Below the pieces are notes generated by a model that saw only the letters and a list, made by a program, of their open reading frames with translations, had not been told where the DNA came from and searched no databases. Of a DNA stretch of 64,000 nt, positions 37,763-51,835 are shown piece after piece. Position 1 is the first letter of the stretch, and the number at the start of each line of letters is the position of its first letter. A program made the position numbers and the translations under genes. This DNA comes from Mustelus asterias (Eukaryota), in the NCBI RefSeq assembly GCF_964213995.1, contig NC_135829.1, positions 16,616,001 through 16,680,000 on the forward strand. The letters are read 5' to 3'.

Positions 37763-37923
37763 GCAATTCAAATGGATGCACATCGAGGATGTGGGCAAGT
37801 GCTTTATATAATGCAAGCTTCTTTCTAATCAATGAGTTCTATACTCAGTAGACATTGTTTAATAAAGTTATTTTCAAAAATACTAAGAAAATTCTAGAAC
37901 AATATATCCTGCATCTTACGCAC

Positions 37924-38019
37924 CTCTTCAAAGAGGCAGAGGGCTGCCTCATATAATGAGCACAGACCATCCGGCGTCCTAGTGGGTTCTCGCCATTGAC
38001 TCCTATCACCCGATGAACC
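37924..38019 (-). CDS. HERC1: HERC1 exon 3 (96 nt)
   Basis: GSSGDRSQWREPTRTPDGLCSLYEAALCLFEE; cacag| and |gtgcgt splice sites; phase 0/0. Confidence 0.96.
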
Positions 38020-38392
38020 CTGTGAGAATCAAAGTTTTCACAGTTAATTAAAAACAGCAAATGAAAGTTATCATTAGTGCCTGAACAACAAATTAGAAGT
38101 GGCCAGAAGAGATCAATGCACTCAGACACAAGTGAAACAGCAACAAAACACATATCCTTAAACACATTCACACTAATTAACAGTGCCATTCATGGAAAGG
38201 GCCACGCAAAGATGTTTTATAGGAAGGAGAGCAGCATAAACAATATGAGGAAGCCAGTATGAGGAATTTCAAATGAGAATCCCACAGTAAGAGTGCAAGC
38301 AAAAGTCAAATAGCCGTAGATAAGGTGATTTTTAACAGTTCAAATGAATAATTCCCTCCCCACCCCCCCCCCCCCTTATTGTTTGTTTAGGG

Positions 38393-38393
38393 G

Positions 38394-38432
<39 letters not shown>
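38393..38432. repeat. (GA)n microsatellite
   Basis: Seen directly. Confidence 0.95.
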
Positions 38433-38436
<4 letters not shown>

Positions 38437-38643
38437 TATTTTACACAGAGGGTGGTGGGGGCCTGGAATGCGCTGCCGGGCAAGGTGGTGGAGGCGGACA
38501 CACTGGAAACGTTTAAGACTTATCTAGATAGCCACATGAATGGAGTGGGAATGGAGGGATACGAAAGAATGGTCTAGTTTGGACCAGGGAGCGGCGCGGG
38601 CTTGGAGGGCCGAAGGGCCTGTTCCTGTGCTGTATTGTTCTTT
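38433..38643 (+). mobile_element. CR1 3' end
   Basis: YFTQRVVGAWNALP; tail gtattgttcttt; abuts a (GA)n repeat. Confidence 0.85.
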
Positions 38644-39392
38644 GTACCCACAGTGCCGTTTGGGAGGGAGTGCCAGGATTTTGACCCAGCAACAATGAAA
38701 GAACAGAGATATATTTCCAAGTCAGGATGGAGAGTGGCTTGGAGGGGAACTTCCAGGTGATTGCATTCCTAGGAATCTGCTGTTCTTGTCCTTCCAGATG
38801 GCAGTGGGCTGGGTTTGGAAGCTGCTGCCTAAGGAACTTTGGTGAATTCCTATAGAGCATCTTGTAGATGGTACACTGTCTGGGACATTATTTGTAAGGA
38901 TGATTCTGTGAGCATGATTACAGCAAGCAGTTGCTTGACTAGGTTATGAGGCAGCTCTCCCAATTTTGACACAAGCAACCAGAAGTTGCTAAGGAGGACT
39001 TTGCAGGTTGTTTTGGTGTTGTCGCTTCCGGTGCCTAGGTCAATGCTGGGTAGCCCACCCGGTTTGATTCCTTTTTACTGACTTTGTAGCGGTTGAATAC
39101 AACTGAGGGGCTTGTGAGGACATCTGAGAGTCAACCACATTGCTGTGGATTTGGAGTCACATGTAGGCTAGGTCAGGCCAGAGTGGCAGGTTTCCTAAAG
39201 AACATTAGTGAACCAGTTAGGTTTTTTTCAAAAACGACAATGGTCACCATTAAACTTTTAATTCCAGATGTTTTTTTTATATAGAGTTTAAATTCCACCA
39301 TCTGCCGTGTTGGGATTCGAACCCCAAGAGCATTACCCTGGGTCTCTGGATTACTAGTCAAGTGACAATATCACTGTGCCACCAGCTCCCCC
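38644..39392 (-). mobile_element. Internally deleted LINE with tRNA-derived (Pol III box A/B) head
   Basis: Head TGGCACAGTGA..GGTTCGAATCC, then APE-like N-terminus CKVLLSNFWLLVSKLGEL..LVKQ..VIMLTES, then a jump to the C-terminal CTIYKM..LRQQLPNP..GSKSWHSLP. Confidence 0.7.
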
Positions 39393-40364
39393 ATGTAAGC
39401 CACAGTAATACAACTGGGCAGTCAACAAGCAAGTTCATCTGTTTGACATTTAAAAAACACGACTTTGGATTGTCCAAATAAATTTCACCTATAACAGATC
39501 ACTATAAAAGTTAGTGCCAGATTAGTGAAGATAGCCAAGAGAACTTTATCAAGGAACCAAACACACAAAATAGTGCTTTAACAGTAGTATCTCACAGAGG
39601 AAAATGCTGTGCTAACAAATATCATGGAGGGAGTGAGATTGGTTAGGAGACATGGGATGGGGAAATTGTACCCAACATGTACCACAGTGGAGGGAGCTAC
39701 CCTAAACATCAGGGAGGGGACTCTCTGATTGTTGCCAACTAAACTGCACTAACAGGTATAATCCACCATCCAAATCTCCATGCTCTCAATCCTTATACCA
39801 CAGGATCTCTCTAGATACGCACGGGAAATATCTCTCGGGTCGGTTTGCATGCCACGAACAACTATCTGCATTTTTAAAAATAGGTTTCTAATTTGCTTCA
39901 AACACCTGCCTCGACTTAACCATAGAGTGGCAGAAACAAAACAGACCGATGCATACTTTCCACAGCCGTACATTCCCCAGAGAATGATGAACTGCACATG
40001 CAAAGGTGCATAAATGATTATACAAGTGACAGTGTGCACTTTGTGAAGATAGCGTGCAATAACCCTCCCCAAGGTTGTGTAGAAGAATGAACATTTCTCA
40101 GGAAGTCCCCAAGATGTTCACTCTTAATCACATTTCTCATTTCTTGGAAGGGTGAAAGGTTGATTGGCGTCTCCTGGCTGACCTACTTATTTGCTGCGGC
40201 CATGGCCAATGACTCCTCTACACAATTCCAGCACCTTAGAAGTGCACAGATAAAAAGGAGGGAGGTGGGCAAAATAGAAGGCTCTAAGCATATATCTGAA
40301 GAGCACAAAGTTCTAGGAATAAATTAACCCATTTCATCTACAGCACCCAGTTTTAGTTACTAAA

Positions 40365-41900
40365 TGCATAGAATTATTACGGCACAGGCCACCAACCCCA
40401 TGCCAGCTCTCTGACAAGCAATCCAGTCAGTCCCTCCCCCACTCCATCACCCACATAGCCCTGGAAGTGCCCATCCAATTTCCTTTTGTAATCACTGATC
40501 ATCTCTGCTTTCATCCTCGGTGGCAGCAAGCTCCTAGTCATTACCACTTGCTGCATAAAACAATTCTGCCTCACATCACCACGGTATCTCTTCCCCAAAA
40601 GCCTTAGGTCTGTTCCCCAGTCCTTGTACCATCAGCTAGAAGGAACAGCTTTTGTTGTCTACCTTACCCAAGCTTATCGTATTCTTCAATACCTCTTTGA
40701 AATCTTCCCTTGATCTTCTTGGGACAGGAGCAATCTAAACCTGTAGCTAAAATTCTTCATCCACAGAACCTACTCTGGTAAACCAACTCTGCACCCTAAC
40801 ATCCTTCCTGAAGTATAGTGACCAGGATTGGATACAGTACTATAAAAGTTCGGCATAAATTCCCTGCTTTTGTACTCAATAACTCACGAATGTCAAGATC
40901 CCGTATCCTTTGCTAACCATTCCCTCAAAATGTCCTTCAAAGATTGATGCACGTACATCCCCAAGTCCCTCTGCCCCTACATTTTCTTTGGAACCATGCC
41001 ATTAAGTACGCATTGGCCAAATACCATCATCCCACACTTTTGTCCTAAATTCCAGCTGCCATTTGCCTGCCCATTCTACTAGCCTTTATTTCCTGCTGCA
41101 GTTAATTGGCACCATCCTCATTTTTGTCATACCTCCAAGTTTGTTATCAACAAATTTTACTCTGAATTCCAAACCCAAGTCATTTGTATGTATCAAAAAA
41201 ACAGTGGTCCTGGCATTGATCCTTGGGGGACACCACTGTCTACCAGTCTCCAGAAACTCTGCTTCTGATCTTGGATTTAAAAAAAACTAATTTAAGCGGA
41301 CCATAAGATGTAGGAGCAGAATTAGGCCATTCAGCCCATCGGGTTTGCTCCGTCATTCAATCATGGCTGATACGATTCTCATCCCCATTCTTCTGCCTTC
41401 TCCCCATAACCCTTGATCCCCTTTTTAATCAAGAACCTGTCTTAAAGATACTCAATGACATGGACTCCACAGGCTTCCATGGCAATGAGTTCCACATATT
41501 CACCACCCTCTGGCTGAAGAAATTCCTCCTCATCTCAGTTTAAAAGGGGTGTCCCTTTACTCTGAGTTCTAGTCTCTCCCACTAGTGGAAACATCCTCTC
41601 CATGTCCATTCTATCTAGGCCCTCCTATTTTCATGAGCCTCAATTTTGTTAACCAGTCTTTTACGTGATACTTTATCAAACACTAATCCTTGTAGACAAC
41701 ATCGACCAGATTGCCCTCATAAATCCTACATAAATAATTGAATTTTTTGATGGAGTAAAGTCAAAACATGATCTGTCTTTTACAAATCCGTGCTGGCTCT
41801 CCTTCATTAACTCAAACTTCCCCAACTCAAACTTCTCCACGTGCAAGTTCCCAATTACTGTTTCAAACACCTTACCCATCACTGATGTTAAACTGTAGTT
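40365..41900 (-). mobile_element. Decayed CR1 fragments (several pieces)
   Basis: GKRYRGDVRQNCF, ESQHGFVK, and a CR1 3' UTR at 41300-41620. Confidence 0.72.
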
Positions 41901-42287
41901 ACTACTAGGAGTGTTCTTTCACGAACAAGAATGTTACATTTTCCAACCTTCTAACAATATGGTGTACAGTTCTGGTCACCTTATTATAGAAAGGACATTA
42001 AACTAGAAAGAATGCAGAAATGATTTACTAGGATGCTACCGGGACTTGATGGTTCGGGTTATAAGGAGAGGCTGGATAGACTGGGACTTTTTCCCTGGAG
42101 CATAGGAGGCTTAGGGGTGATCTTATAGAGGTCTATAAAATAATGAGGGACATAGATAAGGGAGATAGTCAACATCTTTTCCCAAAGGTAGGGGAGTCTA
42201 ATACTAGAGGGCATAGGTTTAAGGTGAAAGGGGAAAGATACAGGGGCAATATTTTCACTCAGGGTTGAATATGTCTGGAAATTAGCT

Positions 42288-44267
42288 CAGTAAGAAGTCT
42301 CACAACACCAGGTTAAAGTCCAACAGGTTTATTTGGTAGCAAATACCATAAGCTTTCGGAGCGCTGCTCCTTCGTCAGATGGAGTGGAAATGTGCTCTCA
42401 AACAGGGCACAGCGACACAACATCAAGTTACAGAATACTGATTAGAATGCGAATCCCTAAAGCCAGCCAGGTCTTAAAGGTACAGACAATGTGGGTGGAG
42501 GGAACATTAAACACAGGTTAAAGAGATGTGTATTGTCTCCAGACAGAACAGCTAGTGAGATTCTGCAAGCCCAGGAGGCAAGCTGCGGGGGTTACTGATA
42601 ATGTGACGTAAATCCAACATCCCGGTTTAGGCCGTCCTCATGTGTGCGGAACTTGGCTATCAGTTTCTGCTCAGCGACTCGGCGCTGTCGTGTGTCGTGA
42701 AGGCCGCCTTGGAGAACACTTACCTGAAGATCCAAGGCTGAATGCCCGTGACTGCTGAAGTGCTCCCCCACAGGAAGAGAACAGTCTTGCCTGGTGATTG
42801 TCGAGCGGTGTTCATTCATCCGTTGTCGTAGCGTCTGCATGGTTTCCCCAATGTACCATGCCTCGGGACATCCTTTCCGGCAGCGTATCAGGTAGTCAAT
42901 GTTGGCCGAGTTGCAAGAGTAGGTACCGTGTACCTGGTAGATGGTGTTCTCACGTGAGATGATGGCATCCGTGTCGATGATCCGGCACGTCTTGCAGAGG
43001 TTGCTGTGGCAGGGTTGTGTGGTGTCGTGGTCACTGTTCTCCTGAAGGCTGGGTAGTTTGCTGCGGACAATGGTCTGTTGAGGTTGCGTGGTTGTTTGAA
43101 GGCAAGAAGTGGGGTGTGGGGATGGCCTTGGCAAGATGTTCGTCTTCATCAATGACATGTTGAAGGCTCTGGAGGAGATGCCGTAGCTTCTCCGCTCCAG
43201 GGAAGTACTGGACGACGAAGGGTACTCTGTCCACTGTGTCCCGTGTTTGTCTTCTGAGGAGGTCGGTGCGGTTTTTCGCTGTGGCGTGTCGGAACTGTTG
43301 ATCGATGAGTCGAGCGCCATATCCTGTTCTTATGAGGGCATCTTTCAGCGTCTGGAGGTGTCTGTTGCGATCCTCCTCATCCGAGCAGATCCTGTGTATT
43401 CGGAGGGCTTGTCTGTAGGGGATGGCTTCTTTAACGTGTTTAGGGTGGAAGCTGGAGAAGTGGAGCATCATGAGGTTATCCGTGGGCTTGTGGTACAGTG
43501 AGGTGCTGAGGTGACCGTCCTTAATGGAGATGCGTGTCCAAGAATGCAACCGATTCCGGAGAGTAGTCCATGGTGAGTCTGATGGTGGGATGGAACTTGT
43601 TGATGTCATCATATAGTTGTTTCAGTGATTGTTCACCATGAGTCCAAAGGAAGAAAATATCATCGATGTATCTACTAGTGTATAGCATCGGTTGAAGGTC
43701 CTGTGAAGAAGTCTTGTTCGAACCTGTGCATGAAGATGTTGGCATATTGAGGAGTGAATTTGGACCCCATGGCTGTTCCGTGTGTCTGGATGAAGAACTG
43801 GTTGTTGAAGGTGAAGACATTGTGGTCCAGGATGAAGCGGATGAGTTGTAAAATTGCATCTGGAAACTGGCAGTTGACGGCATTGAGTATTGAGGCCGTT
43901 GCAGCAATGCCATCATCGTGGGGGATGCTGGTGTAGAGTGCCGAGACATCCATTGTGACGAGGAGTGCTCCTGGTTCAACTGCCCCATGTGTACTGAGTT
44001 TCTGTAGGAAGTCCGTAGTGTCGCGACAAAAGCTGGGGGTTCTTTGTACAATGGGTTTCAGGATTCCCTCGACATAGCCGGAGAGGTTCTCGCACAGGGT
44101 CCCATTGCCCGATACGATGGGACGGCCAGGTGTGTTGGCCTTGTGTATCTTTGGGAGGCAGTAGAGGTCTCCAACGCGTGGAGTACGTGGGATGAGAGCA
44201 CGGAGGGTGTTTTGAAGGTCCGGATCAACGGTTTTGATCAGAGTGTTGAGTTGATGGGTGTGTTCTT
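42288..44267 (-). mobile_element. Penelope-like element (Neptune-type), 5'-truncated and frameshifted: RT + GIY-YIG + pLTR
   Basis: Three consecutive frames give ..PKIHKANTPGRPIVSG..MDVSALYTSIPH..HGTAMGS, then RYIDDIFFLW, then a Cys linker PCHSNLCKTC and YLIRC..WYIGET..RQRMNEH. 12-bp TSD tggaaat(t/g)agct at 42276-42287 / 44268-44279 inside a CR1 fragment. Confidence 0.93.
42346..42382 (-). ncRNA. Minimal type I hammerhead ribozyme (Penelope pLTR)
   Basis: CCAU-CUGACGA-A-GGAGC-agc-GCUCC-GAA-A-gc-U-U-AUGG: full catalytic core, stem I CCAU/AUGG, stem II GGAGC/GCUCC, palindromic minimal stem III. Confidence 0.82.
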
Positions 44268-44466
44268 TGGAAATGAGCTGCCAGAGGTAGTAGCAGAGGC
44301 GGATGCAATTTTGTCTTTTAAAAAGCATTTAGACAGTTACATGGGTAAGATGGCTATAGAGGGATCTGGCCAAATGGGACTACCTTAATGGTAAAAACTG
44401 GGCAGCATGGACAACTGGGCCAAAGGGCCTGTCTCCATGCTGTAAACCTCTGACTCTATAACCTAC

Positions 44467-45067
44467 GGTAGTCATGATGTGGAGATGCCGGCGTTGGACT
44501 GGGGTAAGCGCAGTAAGAAGTCTCACAACACCAGGTTAAAGTCCAACCACTCGACAATCACCAGGCAAGACTGTTCTCTTCCTGTGGGGGAGCACTTCAG
44601 CAGTCACGGGCATTCAGCCTTGGATCTTCAGGTAAGCGTTCTCCAAGGCGGCCTTCACGACACACGACAGCGCAGAGTCACTGAGCAGAAACTGATAGCC
44701 AAGTTCCACACACATGAGGACAGTCTAAACCGGGATGTTGGATTTATGTCACATTATCAGTAACCCCCACAGCTTGCCTCCTGGACTTGCACAATTTCAC
44801 AAGCTGTACTGTCTGGAGACAATACACATCTCTTTAACCTGTGTTGAATGCTCCCTCCACCCACATTGTCTGTACATTTAAGACCTGGCTGGCTGTAGAG
44901 ATTTGCATTCTAATCAGTATTCTGTAATTTGATTTCTGTGTCTGTGCCCTGTTTGAGAACAGAGACCACTCCATCTGACGAAGGAGCATTGCTCCGAAAG
45001 CTTATGGTATTTGCTACCAAATAAACCTGTTGGACTTTAACCTGGTGTTGTGAGACTTCTTACTGTG
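44467..45067 (+). mobile_element. Penelope 3' fragment/pLTR with inverted terminal arm
   Basis: GIY-YIG C-terminus (HSTITRQDCSLPVGEHFSSHGH...SHYQ*) plus pLTR; the left ~80 nt are the inverted pLTR end. Perfect 12-bp TSD tctataacctac at 44455-44466 / 45068-45079. Confidence 0.9.
44971..45007 (+). ncRNA. Minimal type I hammerhead ribozyme
   Basis: ccat-ctgacga-a-ggagc-att-gctcc-gaa-a-gc-t-t-atgg. Confidence 0.82.
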
Positions 45068-45478
45068 TCTATAACCTACACCATGAGCTATTATCATATT
45101 TTTAAAACTTCAACAGTTTATCATAGTCGAAAGAGAAAAAACACAGTTATACGCAGCATAAACGTTTCTCTTTACCAACGCACTGCTATTTTCTCACAGC
45201 AGCCCATTAAATGTCAGGCACATCTCTCATTTTACTAATCCATGCTTCTGAATTAACTCAATTCTATCATGCATCACCTTTCACAACATGTGCATTATTA
45301 ATGTTAGGTTGACTGGTCCGTGGATAACTTGTCTTATTCCCTTTTGAACAGCTGCTAGACTGAGACCTCTGCAGTCTATGGGCACCTCATAAACCAGAGA
45401 TAATTGAATAATTATGCTCAGGGCTTCTGCTATTTCTTCTGCCATCCTGCTGTATTTCAGATGTCTTTCTTTTGTTTT

Positions 45479-45854
45479 GTACCTTTTGGTACTTTATTCC
45501 TAATCAAAAAAGCCAATTAGGTCCATTCATGGCCCCCACCCAAGGGACAAACCAGATCCAAGCTGACAGGACAATGATATTGTACCACATCTTGGGCTCG
45601 ATCAAACAAGATCCAAGCTGACAAGATGAGGCATTGCACACCCTCCCGGACTTGATCTAACACTTCATCTCAGCCAAAAGGCCAAGATGCCTTTGGAAAA
45701 AATTGCATCAGGTAAAGCCTCAGTTTAACATCATTGGTACCCTGATCACACACTCTACCCAAGGATAACCACGATCTAGGCATCAGCATACCCCAAGTGT
45801 AATGGCCAACCATGTCCCCTGCCTGATCATGGTTTCACCCCTGCCAGGTAAGTT
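45479..45854 (-). mobile_element. U1/U2 snRNA-derived chimeric retroposon (SINEU-like)
   Basis: U1-like 5' part 45778-45853, U2-like 5' part 45660-45690, two ~55-nt tandem units, AATAAA, and a degenerate 19-bp flanking direct repeat (45460-45478 / 45855-45873). Confidence 0.75.
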
Positions 45855-45892
45855 GATGCAGTTCTATTGTTTTCATTAATACTACCTTATCC

Positions 45893-46215
45893 AGGCAGCA
45901 CAATGGCACAGTGGGTTAGCACTGCTGCCTCACAGCACCAGGGACCTGGTTTCGATTCCCAGCTTGGGTCACTGCCTGTGCAGAGTCTGCACGTTCTCCC
46001 AGTGTCTGCGTGGGTTTCCTCCGGGTGCTCCAGTTTCTTCACAGTCTGAAAGATGTGCTGGTTAGGTGGATTGGCCATGCTAAATGGCCCCTTAGTATCA
46101 GGGGGACTAGCTAAGCTAAATGCATGCAGTTATGGGGATAGGGCCTGGGTGGGATTGTGGTCGGTGCAGATGCGATGGGCCGAATGGCCTCTTTCTGCAC
46201 TGTAGGGATTCTATC
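45893..46215 (+). mobile_element. HE1-like SINE type A
   Basis: Consensus match. Confidence 0.9.
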
Positions 46216-46344
46216 CATATTTATCCTCACAGATTGCTCTATTTTTTCTTCTTGTACCCCCTCATTCCAACTACCACATTGTGAAAACCAAAACTGGGTA
46301 TTCATATATTTATCAGTGTCATTACTCCAGTATATTTTCTTTTT

Positions 46345-47102
46345 CCATAAGACCATAAGACATAGGAGCAGAATTAGGCCATTCAACCCATCGAGTCTGC
46401 TCCGCCATTCAATCATGGCTGATATTTTTCTCATCCCCATTCTCCTGCCTTTTCCCCATAACCCCTGATCCCCTTATTAATCAAGAGCCTATCTTTTTCT
46501 GTCTTAAAGACACTCAATGACCTGGCCTCCACAGCCTTCTGCGGCAAAGAGTTCCACAGATTCACCACTCTTTGGCTGAAGAAATTCCTCCTCATCTCTG
46601 CTTTAAGGGTCGTCCCTTTAGCCTGAGGTTGTGCCCTCTGGTTCTAGTTTTCCTACTAGAGGAAACATCCTTCCAGATCTACTCTGTCCAGGCCTCGCAG
46701 TATCCTGTAAGTTTCAATAAGATCCCCCCTCATCCTTCTAAACTCCAACAAGTACAGACCCAGAGTCCTCAACTGCTCCTCATATGACAAGCTCTTCATT
46801 CCAAACATCATTTTTGTGAACCTCCTCTGGACCCTTTCCAAGGCCAGCACATCCTTCCTTAGATATGGGGCCCAAAACTGCTCACAATACTCCAAATGGG
46901 GTCTGACCAGAGCCTTATACAGCGTCAGAAGAACATCCCTGCTCTTGTATTCTAGCCCTCTCGACATGAATGCTAACATTGCATTTGCCTTCCTAACTGC
47001 CGACTGAACCTGCACATTAACCTTAAGAGAATTGTCAACAATGACTCCCAAGTCTCTTTGTGCTTCTGATTTCCTAAGCATTTTCCCATTTAGAAAATAG
47101 TC
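46345..47102 (-). mobile_element. CR1 LINE 3' fragment
   Basis: YFLNGK..QRDLGV..RPHLEYCEQFWAPYLRKD; tail tcttatggtcttatgg. Confidence 0.9.
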
Positions 47103-47227
47103 TTTCATAAAAGCCTTCATAAGTCTGCCCAGCCATTCCTTTACTGTTATTTGATGCTTTGATTTTATAAAGCCATTTAATATTTGTTGCCCGTTTACTA
47201 TTTGGTATCCACCCAGTTGTTTTTTTA

Positions 47228-47563
47228 GGGGCAGCACGGTGGCACAGTGGTTAGCTCTACTGCCTCATAGCGCCAGGGACCCAGGTTCAATTCTGGCCTC
47301 TGGTGACTGTCTGTGTGGAGTGTGCACGGACCTCCCCGTGTCTGCGTGGGTTTTCTCTGGGTGTTCCGGTTTCCTCCCACAGTCCAAAGATGTGCGAAGT
47401 AGGCTGATTGACCATGCTAAAATTGCTCTTTAGTGTCCCAAGATGTGTAGGTTAGGGGGATTAACGAGGCAAATGCACGGGGATTGGGGGGGCTGGGTAA
47501 GATGCTCTGTGGAAGAGTCAGTGTAGACTTGATGGGCCGAACGGCCTGTAGGGATTCTATGAT
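47228..47563 (+). mobile_element. HE1-like SINE type A (minus-strand fragment also at 47689-47784)
   Basis: Consensus match. Confidence 0.88.
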
Positions 47564-47796
47564 TCCAAAAAATAAACTTTCAATGCTTTTTGGCCTTTTC
47601 CAGAGTCTGAGCTTAGGGATGGGATCAATGTTATACAAGGCTGCACCACAACCAGATGGGTTGAGCTGCTCGACCAGATCATCTCCACTTAACCCGCACA
47701 TCTTTAGACTGTGGGAGGAAACCCACACAGACACGGGGAGAATGTGCAGACTCCGCACAGAGACCCAAGCCGGGAATCGAACCCTTTTCATAATGT

Positions 47797-49752
47797 GTGT
47801 ATAGCTTTAAAAAAACAACAAAGAACGACTAAGAGCGATTAAGGAAAGGAAAGATAGATTATGAAACTAAACTAGCTCAAAATATAAAAAATGATAGTAA
47901 AAGTTTTTACAAATATATAAAAAGGAATAGAGTGGCTTGAGTGAATGTTGGACCCTTGGAGGATGAGAGCGGGGATTTAATAGTGGAAAACGAGGAAATG
48001 GCTGAGACTTTAAATAAGTTCTTTGTGTCGGTCTTCACGGTGGAAGACACAAATAGTTTACCGAATATTAGAGATCGAGAGTTGGTGGGAGGCGAGTTCC
48101 TTAATACAATTACTATTACTAAAGAGGTAGTGCTTGGTAGACTAATGGGACTGAAGGTAGACAAGTCCCCGGGCCCGGATGGAATGCATCCCAGGGAACT
48201 GAAAGAAATGGCTGAGGTAATAGCAGATGCATTAGTAGTTATTTATCAAAATTCATTGGAATCTGGGGTAGTGCCAGCTGATTGGAAAACAGCTACTGTT
48301 ACGCCGCTGTTTAAAAAAGGAAGTAGACAAAAGGCGGGTAACTACAGGCCGGTTAGCTTAACGTCCGTAGTTGGGAAGATGCTGGAGTCCATCATTAAAG
48401 AGGAAATAGCAGAGCACCTGGATAAGAATGGTTCGATCAAGCAGACGCAGCATGGATTCATGAAGGGAAAGTCGTGTTTCACGAATTTACTGGATTTTTA
48501 TGAAGATATAACGAGTGCAGTTGACAGAGGGGAACTGGTGGATGTGGTGTTTTTAGATTTCCAGAAGGCATTCGATAAGGTGCCCCACAAAAGGTTGCTG
48601 CAGAAGATTGGGGTACATGGAGTTGGGGGTAAAGTGTTAGCATGGATTGGGGATTGGCTATCTAACAGGGAGCAGAGAGTTGGAATAAATGGGTGCTTTT
48701 CTGGTTGGCAGTTGGTGACCAGTGGCGTGCCGCAGGGATCGGTGCTGGGGCCTCAACTGTTTACCATTTACATAGATGATCTGGAGGAGGGGACTGAGTG
48801 TAGGGTATCAAAGGTTGCTGATGACACGAAGATGAGTGGGAAAGCAAATTGCGTGGAGGATGCGGAAAGTCTGCAGAGAGATTTGGATAGGCTGAGCAAG
48901 TGGGCGACGATCTGGCAGATGGAATATAACGTTAGCAAATGTGAGGTTATCCACTTTAGAAGAAATAATAGTAAATTGGAATATTATTTAAATGGAGAAA
49001 AATTACATCATGCTACTGTGCAGAGGGACCTGGGGGTCCTTGTGCACAAATCGCAAAAACTCATCTGCAGGTGCAGCAGGTGATCAAGAAGGCGAATGGA
49101 ATGTTGGCCTTTATCGCGAGGGGGATAGATTATAAAAGCAGGGAGGTCTTGCTGCAACTGTACAAGGCACTGGTGAGGCTGCAACTGGAGTACTGTGTGC
49201 AGTTTTGGTCCCCTTATTTGCGAAAGGATATATTGGCCTTGGAGGGAGTGCAGAGAAGGTTCACCAGGTTGATACCGGAGATGAGGGGTGTAGCTTATGA
49301 GGAGAGATTGAACAGATTGGGTCTGTACTCGTTGGAGTTTAGAAGGCCGAGGGTGATCTTATAGAGACATACAAGATAGTGAAGGGGCTGGATAGGGTAT
49401 AGGTAGAGAGATTCTTGCCACTTAGAAGGGAAACCAGAACTAGAGGGCACAGCCTCAAAATAAGTGGGGGCCGGTTCAGAACAGAGTTGAGGGGGAACTT
49501 CTTCTCTCAGAGGGTAGTGAATCTCTGGAATTCTCTGCCCATTGAAGTGGTGGAGGCTACCTCGTTGAATATGTTTAAATCACGGATAGATAGATTTCTG
49601 ATCGATAAAGGGAATTAAGGGATATGGGGAGCAGGCGGGTAAGTGGAACTGATTCGCTTCAGATCAGCCATGATCTTGTTGAGTGGCGGGGCAGGCTCGA
49701 GGGGCTAGATGGCCTACTCCTGCTCCTATTTCTTATGGTCTTATGTTCTTAT
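47797..49752 (+). mobile_element. CR1-clade LINE, 5'-truncated and frameshifted
   Basis: ORFs 47941-49083, 49071-49364 and 49415-49618 with DFQKAFD, GVPQGSVLGP and KVADD; tail tcttatggtcttatgttcttat. Confidence 0.94.
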
Positions 49753-50249
49753 AACCATGAATCTCCCAATCTGATTCGTCATATTAATAGGCAACGCCTA
49801 TCTGTAACAATGTCTTTGTTAAAGCCGCTTTGTTCATGGAAACTTTCAACCACAGTATTTCCTGTTACATCTCTGTGACTTCCTCCTTTATCTGTGTAGC
49901 TTCATGATAACTGTGCACCAAAAGAAGGATCTTTGTTGCCTCGTAATGATGACTATTAAAACCTCCAGGCATCTTACCTGAAACAGGTTTCCGTCTGGAT
50001 TATCTAATACATTACCATACGATATTATGCAGTCCACAACTGGATTTAAATTTTAATACAAGTGGCTCAGCAGCATCATTGTATATTCATTCTTACTGGC
50101 TCATTAACTGTACGACAAAGTTAATCTTACAGGAACCACAATACTCAAAAGAAAAATATTCCCCCAAGTCAAGCAGAAAAGATTTATACACAATTTCTTC
50201 AAGCAAACTTGTGAAATCCAAATCATTGGGTAATTTACAAATTTTAAGT

Positions 50250-50860
50250 TTGGAGACAGGGATGTGTTGTTGCAATTATACAGGGCCTTGGTGAGGCCAC
50301 ACCTAGAGTATTGTGTGCAGTTTTGATCTCCTTTTCTGAGGAAGAATGTTCTTGCTCTCGAGGGAGTGCAGCGAAGATTTACCAGGCTGATTCCAGGGAT
50401 GGCGGGACTGATGTATAAGGAGATTGACTAGGTTAGGATTGTTATCGCTGGAGTTCAGATGAACATGGGGGCATCTCACAGAGACTTATAAAATTCTAAC
50501 AGGACTAAACAGGGTAGATGCAGGGAAGATGTTCCCAATGGTGGGGGAGTCCAGAACCAGGGGCCACAGTCTGACGATTTAGGGTAGACCATTTAGGATG
50601 GCGGTGAGGAGACATTTCTTCACCCAAAGAGTGGTGAGCCAGTCACATTAATGCAATACCACAGGAAATAGTTGATGCCAAAACATTGAATGTATTCAAG
50701 AGGCGGCTGGATATTGCACTTGGGGCGAATGGGATCAAAGGTTATGGGGAGAAAGCAGGATTAGGTTATTGAGTTGGATGATCAGCCATGATCGTGATGA
50801 ATGGCGGAGCAGGCTCGAAGGACCAAATGGCCTCCTCCTATCTTCTACGTTTCTATGTTA
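50250..50860 (+). mobile_element. CR1 LINE 3' fragment ending about 45 nt from the exon 2 donor
   Basis: LYRALVRPHLEYCVQF..; same subfamily as 210-698. Confidence 0.88.
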
Positions 50861-50905
50861 CAACAAACTTTATCTGATAGAGGGTACTATAAACCAGATA
50901 CATAC

Positions 50906-51835
50906 CAAAGAGCGTCTCATTTGTAGAAGAATGTTCATGAAGCAGTCATGGCTAATCATTCCTTCTCGACTCATAGGCAGTTTCGTTTTTTCCATGGTGC
51001 TAACTACAGCCGATGCAGCCAAAGCCATTTCTATCCATTCCAGAAGGTACCTTAGAGAACCCCGCTGGGCTGCAAGTCCAAGCAGCAACTCTGAAGCTAA
51101 TCTCCGTCCCAAGATATCCGCTCCGGAGTTTGGCATTGTGACTCCCTTCAGGAATGTCGTCACTTGGGACAAGCAGTCCAGTCCCATTGCTGGAATTTTA
51201 CTCTCATTTGCTAAAGATAATGGCGGCAATGAGCTGATCACATCTATTGCTGTGTGGATAACGTCATTACAGAGGTTCAATCCTGGTACTGTGGAAGGCA
51301 CCAGCCAGCTCTGCCGCAACAGTGCAAACAGTAAACTTAATCCAGTCCGAACTCCCATCTCTATCAGAGCGTCTGTACTCGACCTTGGACGCTCACTAAC
51401 AGAATGGATATCTGTCGCTCCAGAACTGCTCTCAGGCGAATGCTGCTGCTGTTTGACTTTACCCTTGTCATGGTATTTGTTGGAAAGAGCATAAAAAACA
51501 CGCTGTAACACCAACAAGCGCTTCCGAAGGGACGCTGCAAATGGAGAATCGGAGCAAACCATCTTCGCCAGAGCCAGCTGGCTACTAAGGAGAGCATCCA
51601 GGTAGTGTTCTTGTTCATCGCTGGAGAGGGACTCGCGTTCAAAGTCTGGTAGCTGGGGTCCCTTGAGGCAGAGGACTTGCTGTGGTAATGGCACCACCTC
51701 TTTACTGCTAACTAGCTTACTGTACAAAATAGAAACACCTTCTCTGGTGGCAATGGACTCACTGTCCTCTGTAATCCAAGAGCTATTGAGGTGCTCCAAC
51801 CACTTTAGCTTCACTGGTGGAATCATTAGAGCCAT
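50906..51835 (-). CDS. HERC1: HERC1 first coding exon (exon 2, coding part; 930 nt)
   Basis: Translates MALMIPPVKLKWLEHLNSSWITEDSESIATREG...QMRRSL, near-identical to the vertebrate HERC1 N-terminus. Acceptor ttttag|G with exon start 51861 (26 nt of 5'UTR); donor TTG|gtatgt at 50905. Confidence 0.98.

Follow-up and report, generated by a model that had tools for sequence, protein, structure and literature searches.

We interpret a 376 nt insert on the minus strand of the sequence analyzed here (45479..45854) as an old copy of a dispersed, non-coding retroposon family composed of U1, U4 and U2 snRNA pieces, likely mobilised by Keno, a LINE, or by one of its close relatives. Transcription likely came from the external promoter of an snRNA gene in which a master copy had inserted; we assign this reading a probability of about 0.7. 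The window, to which positions refer, is a 64,000 nt stretch of the Mustelus asterias genome (GCF_964213995.1, contig NC_135829.1, 16,616,001–16,680,000 of the forward strand). By reading of the sequence the insert lies within an intron of HERC1, a gene identified through protein comparison (90–91% to bird and mammal proteins). The parts of this locus, with the snRNA pieces compared to reference U1, U2 and U4 genes taken from the same genome, are as follows.

37912..51835, minus strand: HERC1 context; exons at 51835-50906 and 38025-37912, with a ~12.9-kb intron between them that contains the element in the sense orientation.
45855..45873, minus strand: 5′ target-site duplicate of 19 nt, A-rich at its start and 15/19 identical to 45460-45478.
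45818..45853, minus strand: U1 nt 3-38, covering the end that pairs with 5′ splice sites and the 5′ strand of stem-loop I; it matches the U1 gene of this genome at 34/36 positions.
45778..45817, minus strand: U1 nt 50-90 (stem-loop II); nt 39-49 are missing and the junction is common to the family, whose consensus matches host U1 nt 2-95 at 79/83 positions across an 11-nt gap.
45755..45772, minus strand: second, older U1 piece (nt 37-61), shortened here; predicted to re-form the stem-loop I helix.
45717..45740, minus strand: U4 nt 23-47, from the 5′ stem-loop region; against host U4 the consensus matches at 23/25 positions (0/2000 shuffles) and the copy here at 20/25 (1/2000 shuffles).
45660..45690, minus strand: U2 nt 4-34 (stem-loop I); 27/31 to host U2, stopping just short of the complete branch-point-pairing sequence.
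45604..45657, minus strand: tandem unit 1, decayed U2 nt about 20-68; a repeat of unit 2, and on its own 24/37 to U2 31-68, below the shuffle median.
45495..45603, minus strand: tandem unit 2 with the stretch that continues it, matching U2 nt 19-116 (stem-loops IIa/IIb and Sm-site region) in decayed form; identity is 66/97 here and 71/96 for the consensus, higher than in any of 300 shuffles.
45493..45498, minus strand: AATAAA in the sequence, followed by GTA as at the 3′ end of the Keno-type LINE.
45479..45492, minus strand: terminal 5-bp hairpin with a four-base loop; pair probability >0.7 in the consensus, and present also in the fold of this copy.
45460..45478, minus strand: A-rich tail and, merged with it, the 3′ target-site duplicate, from the sequence and the repeat comparison.

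A first-pass annotation had described a single insertion of a U1/U2 double-snRNA SINE, and much of its anatomy holds. The U1-like start is present, although it begins at 45853, one base from the 45854 given; its continuation into U1 stem-loop II is borne out (66/76 aligned positions match host U1 over both head pieces), as are the U2 match at 45690-45660, the two ~55-nt tandem units, the AATAAA at 45498-45493, and the flanking 19-nt repeat (79%) read as a decayed target-site duplication. The tandem units are additionally decayed U2, and the spacer described as ~90 nt of other sequence contains the second U1 piece and the U4 piece. The insert is indeed one insertion of a dispersed SINE-like family, but a three-snRNA mosaic, not a double head on an unrelated body.

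The mosaic structure is plain in the family consensus, which is 377 nt long, with A tails. Its head joins U1 nt 2–38 to nt 50–95, its U2 segment downstream of the U4 piece corresponds to nt 5–40 (30/36), and only short linkers and the last ~25 nt (AATAAA, the 5-bp hairpin and the A tail) have no snRNA match. Partial duplication of the decayed 3′ U2 body accounts for the two 55-nt units. The element is a mosaic of three snRNAs (U1, U4 and U2), built almost entirely of their pieces, and identity to the source snRNA differs by layer: 95% in the U1 head, 92% in the U4 core and 74% in the 3′ U2 body. The second U1 piece is 22/24 to a host U1 variant in loci L124 and L128 and 19/22 in L127 (0/1000 shuffles each), and its region forms a predicted 12-bp helix in the consensus fold (pair probability >0.7). 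Searching the single copy with Rfam models, as had been proposed, does recover U2 (20.3 bits, E 0.3) and U1 (13.8 bits, E 1.8), weakly and below the gathering scores. Chance similarity is excluded because the family copies share their structure and the consensus scores against U1 (132) and U2 (75) exceed the shuffle maxima (48 and 53.5). Predicted pairing of U1 nt 3–10 has a mean of 0.70 compared with 0.62 when the downstream part is shuffled and is higher in 17/23 copies, but native U1 likewise gives 0.62, and the folds hint only faintly at a U1 5′ end masked ('locked') by downstream pairing.

A search of the animal's own genome (3.68 Gb) gave 3,584 first-look candidates, of which 40 were scored. 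All 40 align over nearly the whole element at 81–85%, except for one 99% copy; L002/L131 (99%, with identical flanks) was counted as the same locus and not as a second copy. Thirty loci with unrelated flanks align end to end and are 90–94% identical to the consensus (mean 92%), an independent 30-locus sample chosen by one motif gives 83–94% identity, and divergence among copies is star-like at 6–10%. The genome search and consensus building that the first-pass annotation called for thus bear out a multi-copy family with the U1-spacer-U2-repeat architecture. Exact motif counts in the genome are 1,971 for the body, 136 for the U4 piece, 55 for the tail and 14 for the head, with reversed controls all at 0. 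The U4 motif is intact in 9/28, 3/10 and 2/13 copies of three samples, and the U1 head is kept at 23/30 U4-motif loci; from the 136 U4-motif matches and these rates we estimate that the U1-headed subfamily has roughly 300–700 copies, within a larger superfamily.

The breadth of that superfamily is apparent in the first 30 body-motif loci, which include a U2-only monomer as well as elements headed by different U1 or U2 pieces. The monomer (~220 nt) is a decayed, near-complete U2 (103/150 to U2 19–169), and 16 copies average 90% to their own consensus. U2-headed U4-U2 forms exist, and one locus (L095:1540-1990) has about ten head-to-tail units of U1 nt 14–52 preceding a U4-U2 body. In a sister subfamily consisting of a U2 head, a U4-like middle and a U2 body (sequences L114:1832-2172 and L133-L162), the 40 scored copies, spread over many contigs, are 97–100% identical. 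On this identity the sister subfamily is very young, and its sequences suggest that it is likely still active and polymorphic.

The copies carry the marks of retroposition. A tails are present and many copies are 5′-truncated. Among old copies the flanking repeat exceeds the 95th percentile of mismatched flank pairs in 13/29 and the 99th in 6/29, counts that are conservative in that the drop-off rule misses even the 15/19 repeat of the HERC1-intron copy; among 30 young sister copies, 17 have a repeat of at least 7 nt and 13 have no duplication. Where the head is intact (13 independent loci), the first base is exactly U1 +1 in 7, and none has upstream sequence in common with another; 12/30 young sister copies begin at U2 +1, all 30 beginning within nt 1–11. 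In one of these 30 (L140), five letters matching the immediate upstream flank of the U2 gene precede U2 +1, which, judging from the letters, may be a trace of an RNA made at a U2 locus. Among 104 dispersed loci there is no case of an snRNA upstream region; upstream matches at dispersed loci that were considered as snRNA promoter proved to be a common repeat. No copy linked to a U1 promoter was seen in U1-array stretches totalling 200 kb, nor in a U1-promoter search that gave 130 candidates, 40 of which were scored.

The insertion in the HERC1 intron is old, fixed and shared across other organisms. Five other organisms were aligned at the orthologous site, the fifth without coverage of the flank; contigs of the other four cover the 3′ flank, with 12–32 differences per about 290–370 letters, and the insertion is taken to be old and shared because all four contain the 3′ end of the element. 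The empty orthologous site suggested in the first-pass annotation was therefore seen in none of the four. An apparent empty site in two organisms, where the alignment ends at 45477, was rejected, the unaligned letters being a variant terminal hairpin and AATAAA of the element. The perfect CAG|GTAAGT donor reported on the plus strand is present (45845-45853) and is merely the complement of the U1 5′ end; it is antisense to HERC1, and action on that gene, which is on the opposite strand, is ruled out. Just upstream of the element, at 45900-46200 and 46340-46600, lie a very abundant SINE that we take to be shark HE1 and a CR1-like 3′ end.

A candidate partner is found in the U2 genes themselves. 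The U2 arrays contain a LINE with a ZCCHC3-type/zinc-knuckle ORF1, an APE endonuclease, RT and zf-RVT; its A tail directly adjoins U2 nt 38, where 20 nt are duplicated, and its 5′ end corresponds to U2 nt 5–35. According to the available part of PMC4640811, Keno and Utopia have a common U2 target site and Keno has an APE enzyme; because the site at U2 nt 38 and the APE domain agree with this, we classify the LINE from its sequence as Keno-type (Tx1), and call it Keno below. An L1/Tx1-type LINE had been anticipated as the partner, and Keno in the U2 arrays is stacked with sister elements at U2 nt 37/38. At locus L173 the order is U2 upstream region (98.5%), U2 1–38, a sister element, a 5′-truncated Keno, a second sister element and U2 38–191, all three 3′ junctions lying at the same U2 site (one such locus in 200 kb of U2-array stretches). 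The promoter-linked sister copy there is internally deleted, so the 99% identical copies do not derive from it directly. At L114 a Keno 3′ end and two sister copies are stacked at a U2-like chromosomal site, L118 has serial insertions into U2 heads, including a copy with the tail of the U1-headed subfamily, and L100 similarly has serial insertions into earlier copies.

The link to Keno is less direct for the U1-headed subfamily. U1, U2 or family sequence directly follows the 3′ end in 2/37 copies compared with 14/1,998 control windows (the 37 being copies with a recognised 3′ end, from 86 loci given), and insertion sites are mostly A-rich, not U2-like. A 10-letter AATAAA motif is shared with Keno, wider 3′-end similarity to the LINE not being significant (459/2000 shuffles); after U2 nt 34, the monomer and the Keno 5′ end match at 12/16 letters, and free alignments beyond U2 are not significant. 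The idea that the 3′ ~130 nt is shared with a LINE was rejected: the stretch is U2, and 30/30 tail-motif loci (of 55) have no LINE body upstream, the upstream sequence being SINE-type or truncated.

Several other loci bear on the traffic between these LINEs and snRNA genes. At L195:2293-2712 (G000:C8:18832300-18832700) the A tail of a Keno relative (89%) runs into a U1 gene near its nt 36–37, close to where the first U1 piece of the element ends; the available passages of the literature make no mention of a Tx1 LINE targeting U1. A Keno-related 3′ fragment lies in the spacer of each U1 repeat unit at G000:C8:13037000-13068000 (L186-L188). At G000:C24:43020001-43056000 (L169-L172) nine variant U2 array units stand behind normal upstream regions; seven have 16 extra nt, and alignment of three variants shows repeats of U2 nt 19–37 in place of the site that Keno targets. 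Possibly these variants were left by aborted insertions, have spread in the array and now resist Keno. At G000:C24:44815000-44940000 (L051, L179-L181) there are sixteen U2 genes at about 8-kb spacing, and since each unit read pairs an intact U2 with a Keno-disrupted U2, Keno has been amplified as part of the tandem unit; the Keno there has an ORF2 broken by another SINE and by stops.

We propose that the enzymes of Keno or a relative would copy the element into new sites, and that insertion of a copy into an snRNA gene would turn the first ~38 nt of that gene into its new head, the gene promoter driving the fused RNA from +1. Repeated rounds would stack snRNA pieces with the oldest at the 3′ end, and template switches would add to this, probably being needed for the U4 piece. 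The U1 head of the U1-headed subfamily would have been acquired by the same route through a U1 gene, a step proposed by analogy only. Transcription from snRNA-gene promoters is likely, and is favored because copies start at U1 +1 or U2 +1, because the consensus has no match to an A box and has four internal T runs of 4–6, and because of the arrangement at L173. Mobilisation by an ordinary L1/Tx1 element is also possible given the mostly A-rich insertion sites and the scarcity of copies beside U1, U2 or family sequence. The broader proposition, to which we give an even chance, is that sharks harbor an independent, still-active lineage of promoter-less retroposons that breeds in snRNA genes, a Keno-type LINE inserting into U2 (at times U1), the promoter transcribing the insert and the 5′ end of the gene becoming the next head; this would be the first three-snRNA SINE.

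The heads could instead have been added by template switching of a LINE RT onto free U1, U2 and U4 RNA, the masters using unrelated upstream promoters and U2 residence being a by-product of Keno targeting. A +1 start is also expected from a switch onto U1 RNA, the U4 piece is internal, and no LINE is known to target U4. The absence of a U1-resident master from the U1-array stretches and the promoter search also favors this explanation, as do the ten or so tandem U1 units in L095, which repeated template jumps would yield, and it is Kojima's model for crocodilian SINEU in the available part of PMC4494074. Nonetheless we consider it unlikely: read-through from foreign promoters predicts common 5′ extensions, of which there are none among the 13 intact heads, and the exact dispersed structure is seen fused to the 5′ part of a U2 gene, with the upstream region of that gene in front.

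The remaining explanations are far less probable than acquisition of heads and promoters within snRNA genes. Descent from a functional variant snRNA-like gene, a structured U1/U4/U2 chimeric RNA whose copies are processed pseudogenes, would fit with predicted folds more stable than shuffles (z −4.4 for the consensus, −2.7 for the HERC1-intron copy) and with a head that re-forms a long helix, but there is no near-consensus, promoter-bearing source locus, divergence is star-like, the many structural subfamilies have swapped heads, and the consensus lacks both the U1 Sm site and an intact U2 branch-point-pairing sequence; we regard it as very improbable. We give equally little credence to transcription by RNA polymerase III from an internal promoter, as in a conventional SINE. 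A loose B-box pattern does match twice in the consensus (one motif, duplicated), but the lack of an A box and the internal T runs speak against it, and an AATAAA that immediately precedes the tail is a sign of polymerase II. That heads differ among loci might suggest independent chimeric snRNA retropseudogenes and no family at all, a view with a negligible chance of being correct: 28/28 top copies contain the U4 piece, the U2 piece and the 3′ body, 27/28 contain the U1 50–95 piece, and the copies have junctions in common together with common substitutions missing from the snRNA genes.

There are close parallels to the SINEU elements, which the available part of Kojima 2015 (PMC4494074) reports in crocodilians and none outside, with their transcription named as an open question. 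As described there, crocodilian SINEU-1, -2 and -3 are likewise shorter than 500 bp, with U1 or U2 heads added repeatedly at the 5′ end and an A tail; they too have internal T runs and no internal promoter, duplications that are present or absent, tandem insertions around a duplication, and a Tx1-clade partner related to Keno. SINEU-2 has a 5′ U1 and a 3′ U2, and SINEU-3 is an altered U2 resembling the shark monomer. The shark family shares the defining properties of a U1/U2-derived head (79/83), a length under 500 bp with an A tail, a dispersed common structure, and oligo-T without an internal polymerase III promoter; a target shared with a Tx1-clade LINE is clear in the sister subfamilies, but the sign of one is weak in the U1-headed subfamily (2/37 copies). 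By the same partial account it differs from crocodilian SINEU in its lineage, in heads that match the Mustelus genome's own U1, U2 and U4, in its U4 piece and in a body that is nearly all snRNA; moreover, the target in common with the partner is the U2 gene itself and not Mariner-N4_AMi, and copies stand behind the U2 upstream region.

Comparison with other systems places the element similarly. As with Keno and Utopia (PMC4640811, available part), the shark LINE and the sister elements use the same U2 site, and, like Keno, the LINE encodes an APE endonuclease, whereas the shark element is non-coding and non-autonomous, with most copies outside U2 genes. Like snRNA retropseudogenes and snRNA/LINE-1 chimeras as summarised in PMC4494074 (compare bioRxiv 10.1101/2025.02.02.635956) it has snRNA pieces, A tails and duplications, but those arise singly (PMC4494074, same part), and hundreds of shark copies have one mosaic in common. 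Unlike classical polymerase III SINEs with a tRNA, 7SL or 5S head, its head is U1. We found no shark SINEU or U4-containing SINE in the available parts of the open literature, including PMC5381603, PMC5786205, PMC5753468, PMC7245038 and PMC12054243. The family is a real one of SINEU type, most likely of independent origin; on papers alone, and with a Repbase or Dfam entry possible, the U4 piece and the relatives inside U2 genes beside a likely partner LINE are new relative to published SINEU.

Thousands of copies with U1 or U2 5′ ends present a risk of false snRNA annotation, and copies lying antisense in introns supply consensus splice donors. The copies resident in U2 genes offer a concrete mechanism for promoter capture, and the young, 99%-identical sister subfamily would make the open question of SINEU transcription directly testable. 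A second independent origin would show that snRNA-built SINEs recur where a U2-targeting Tx1 LINE is active.
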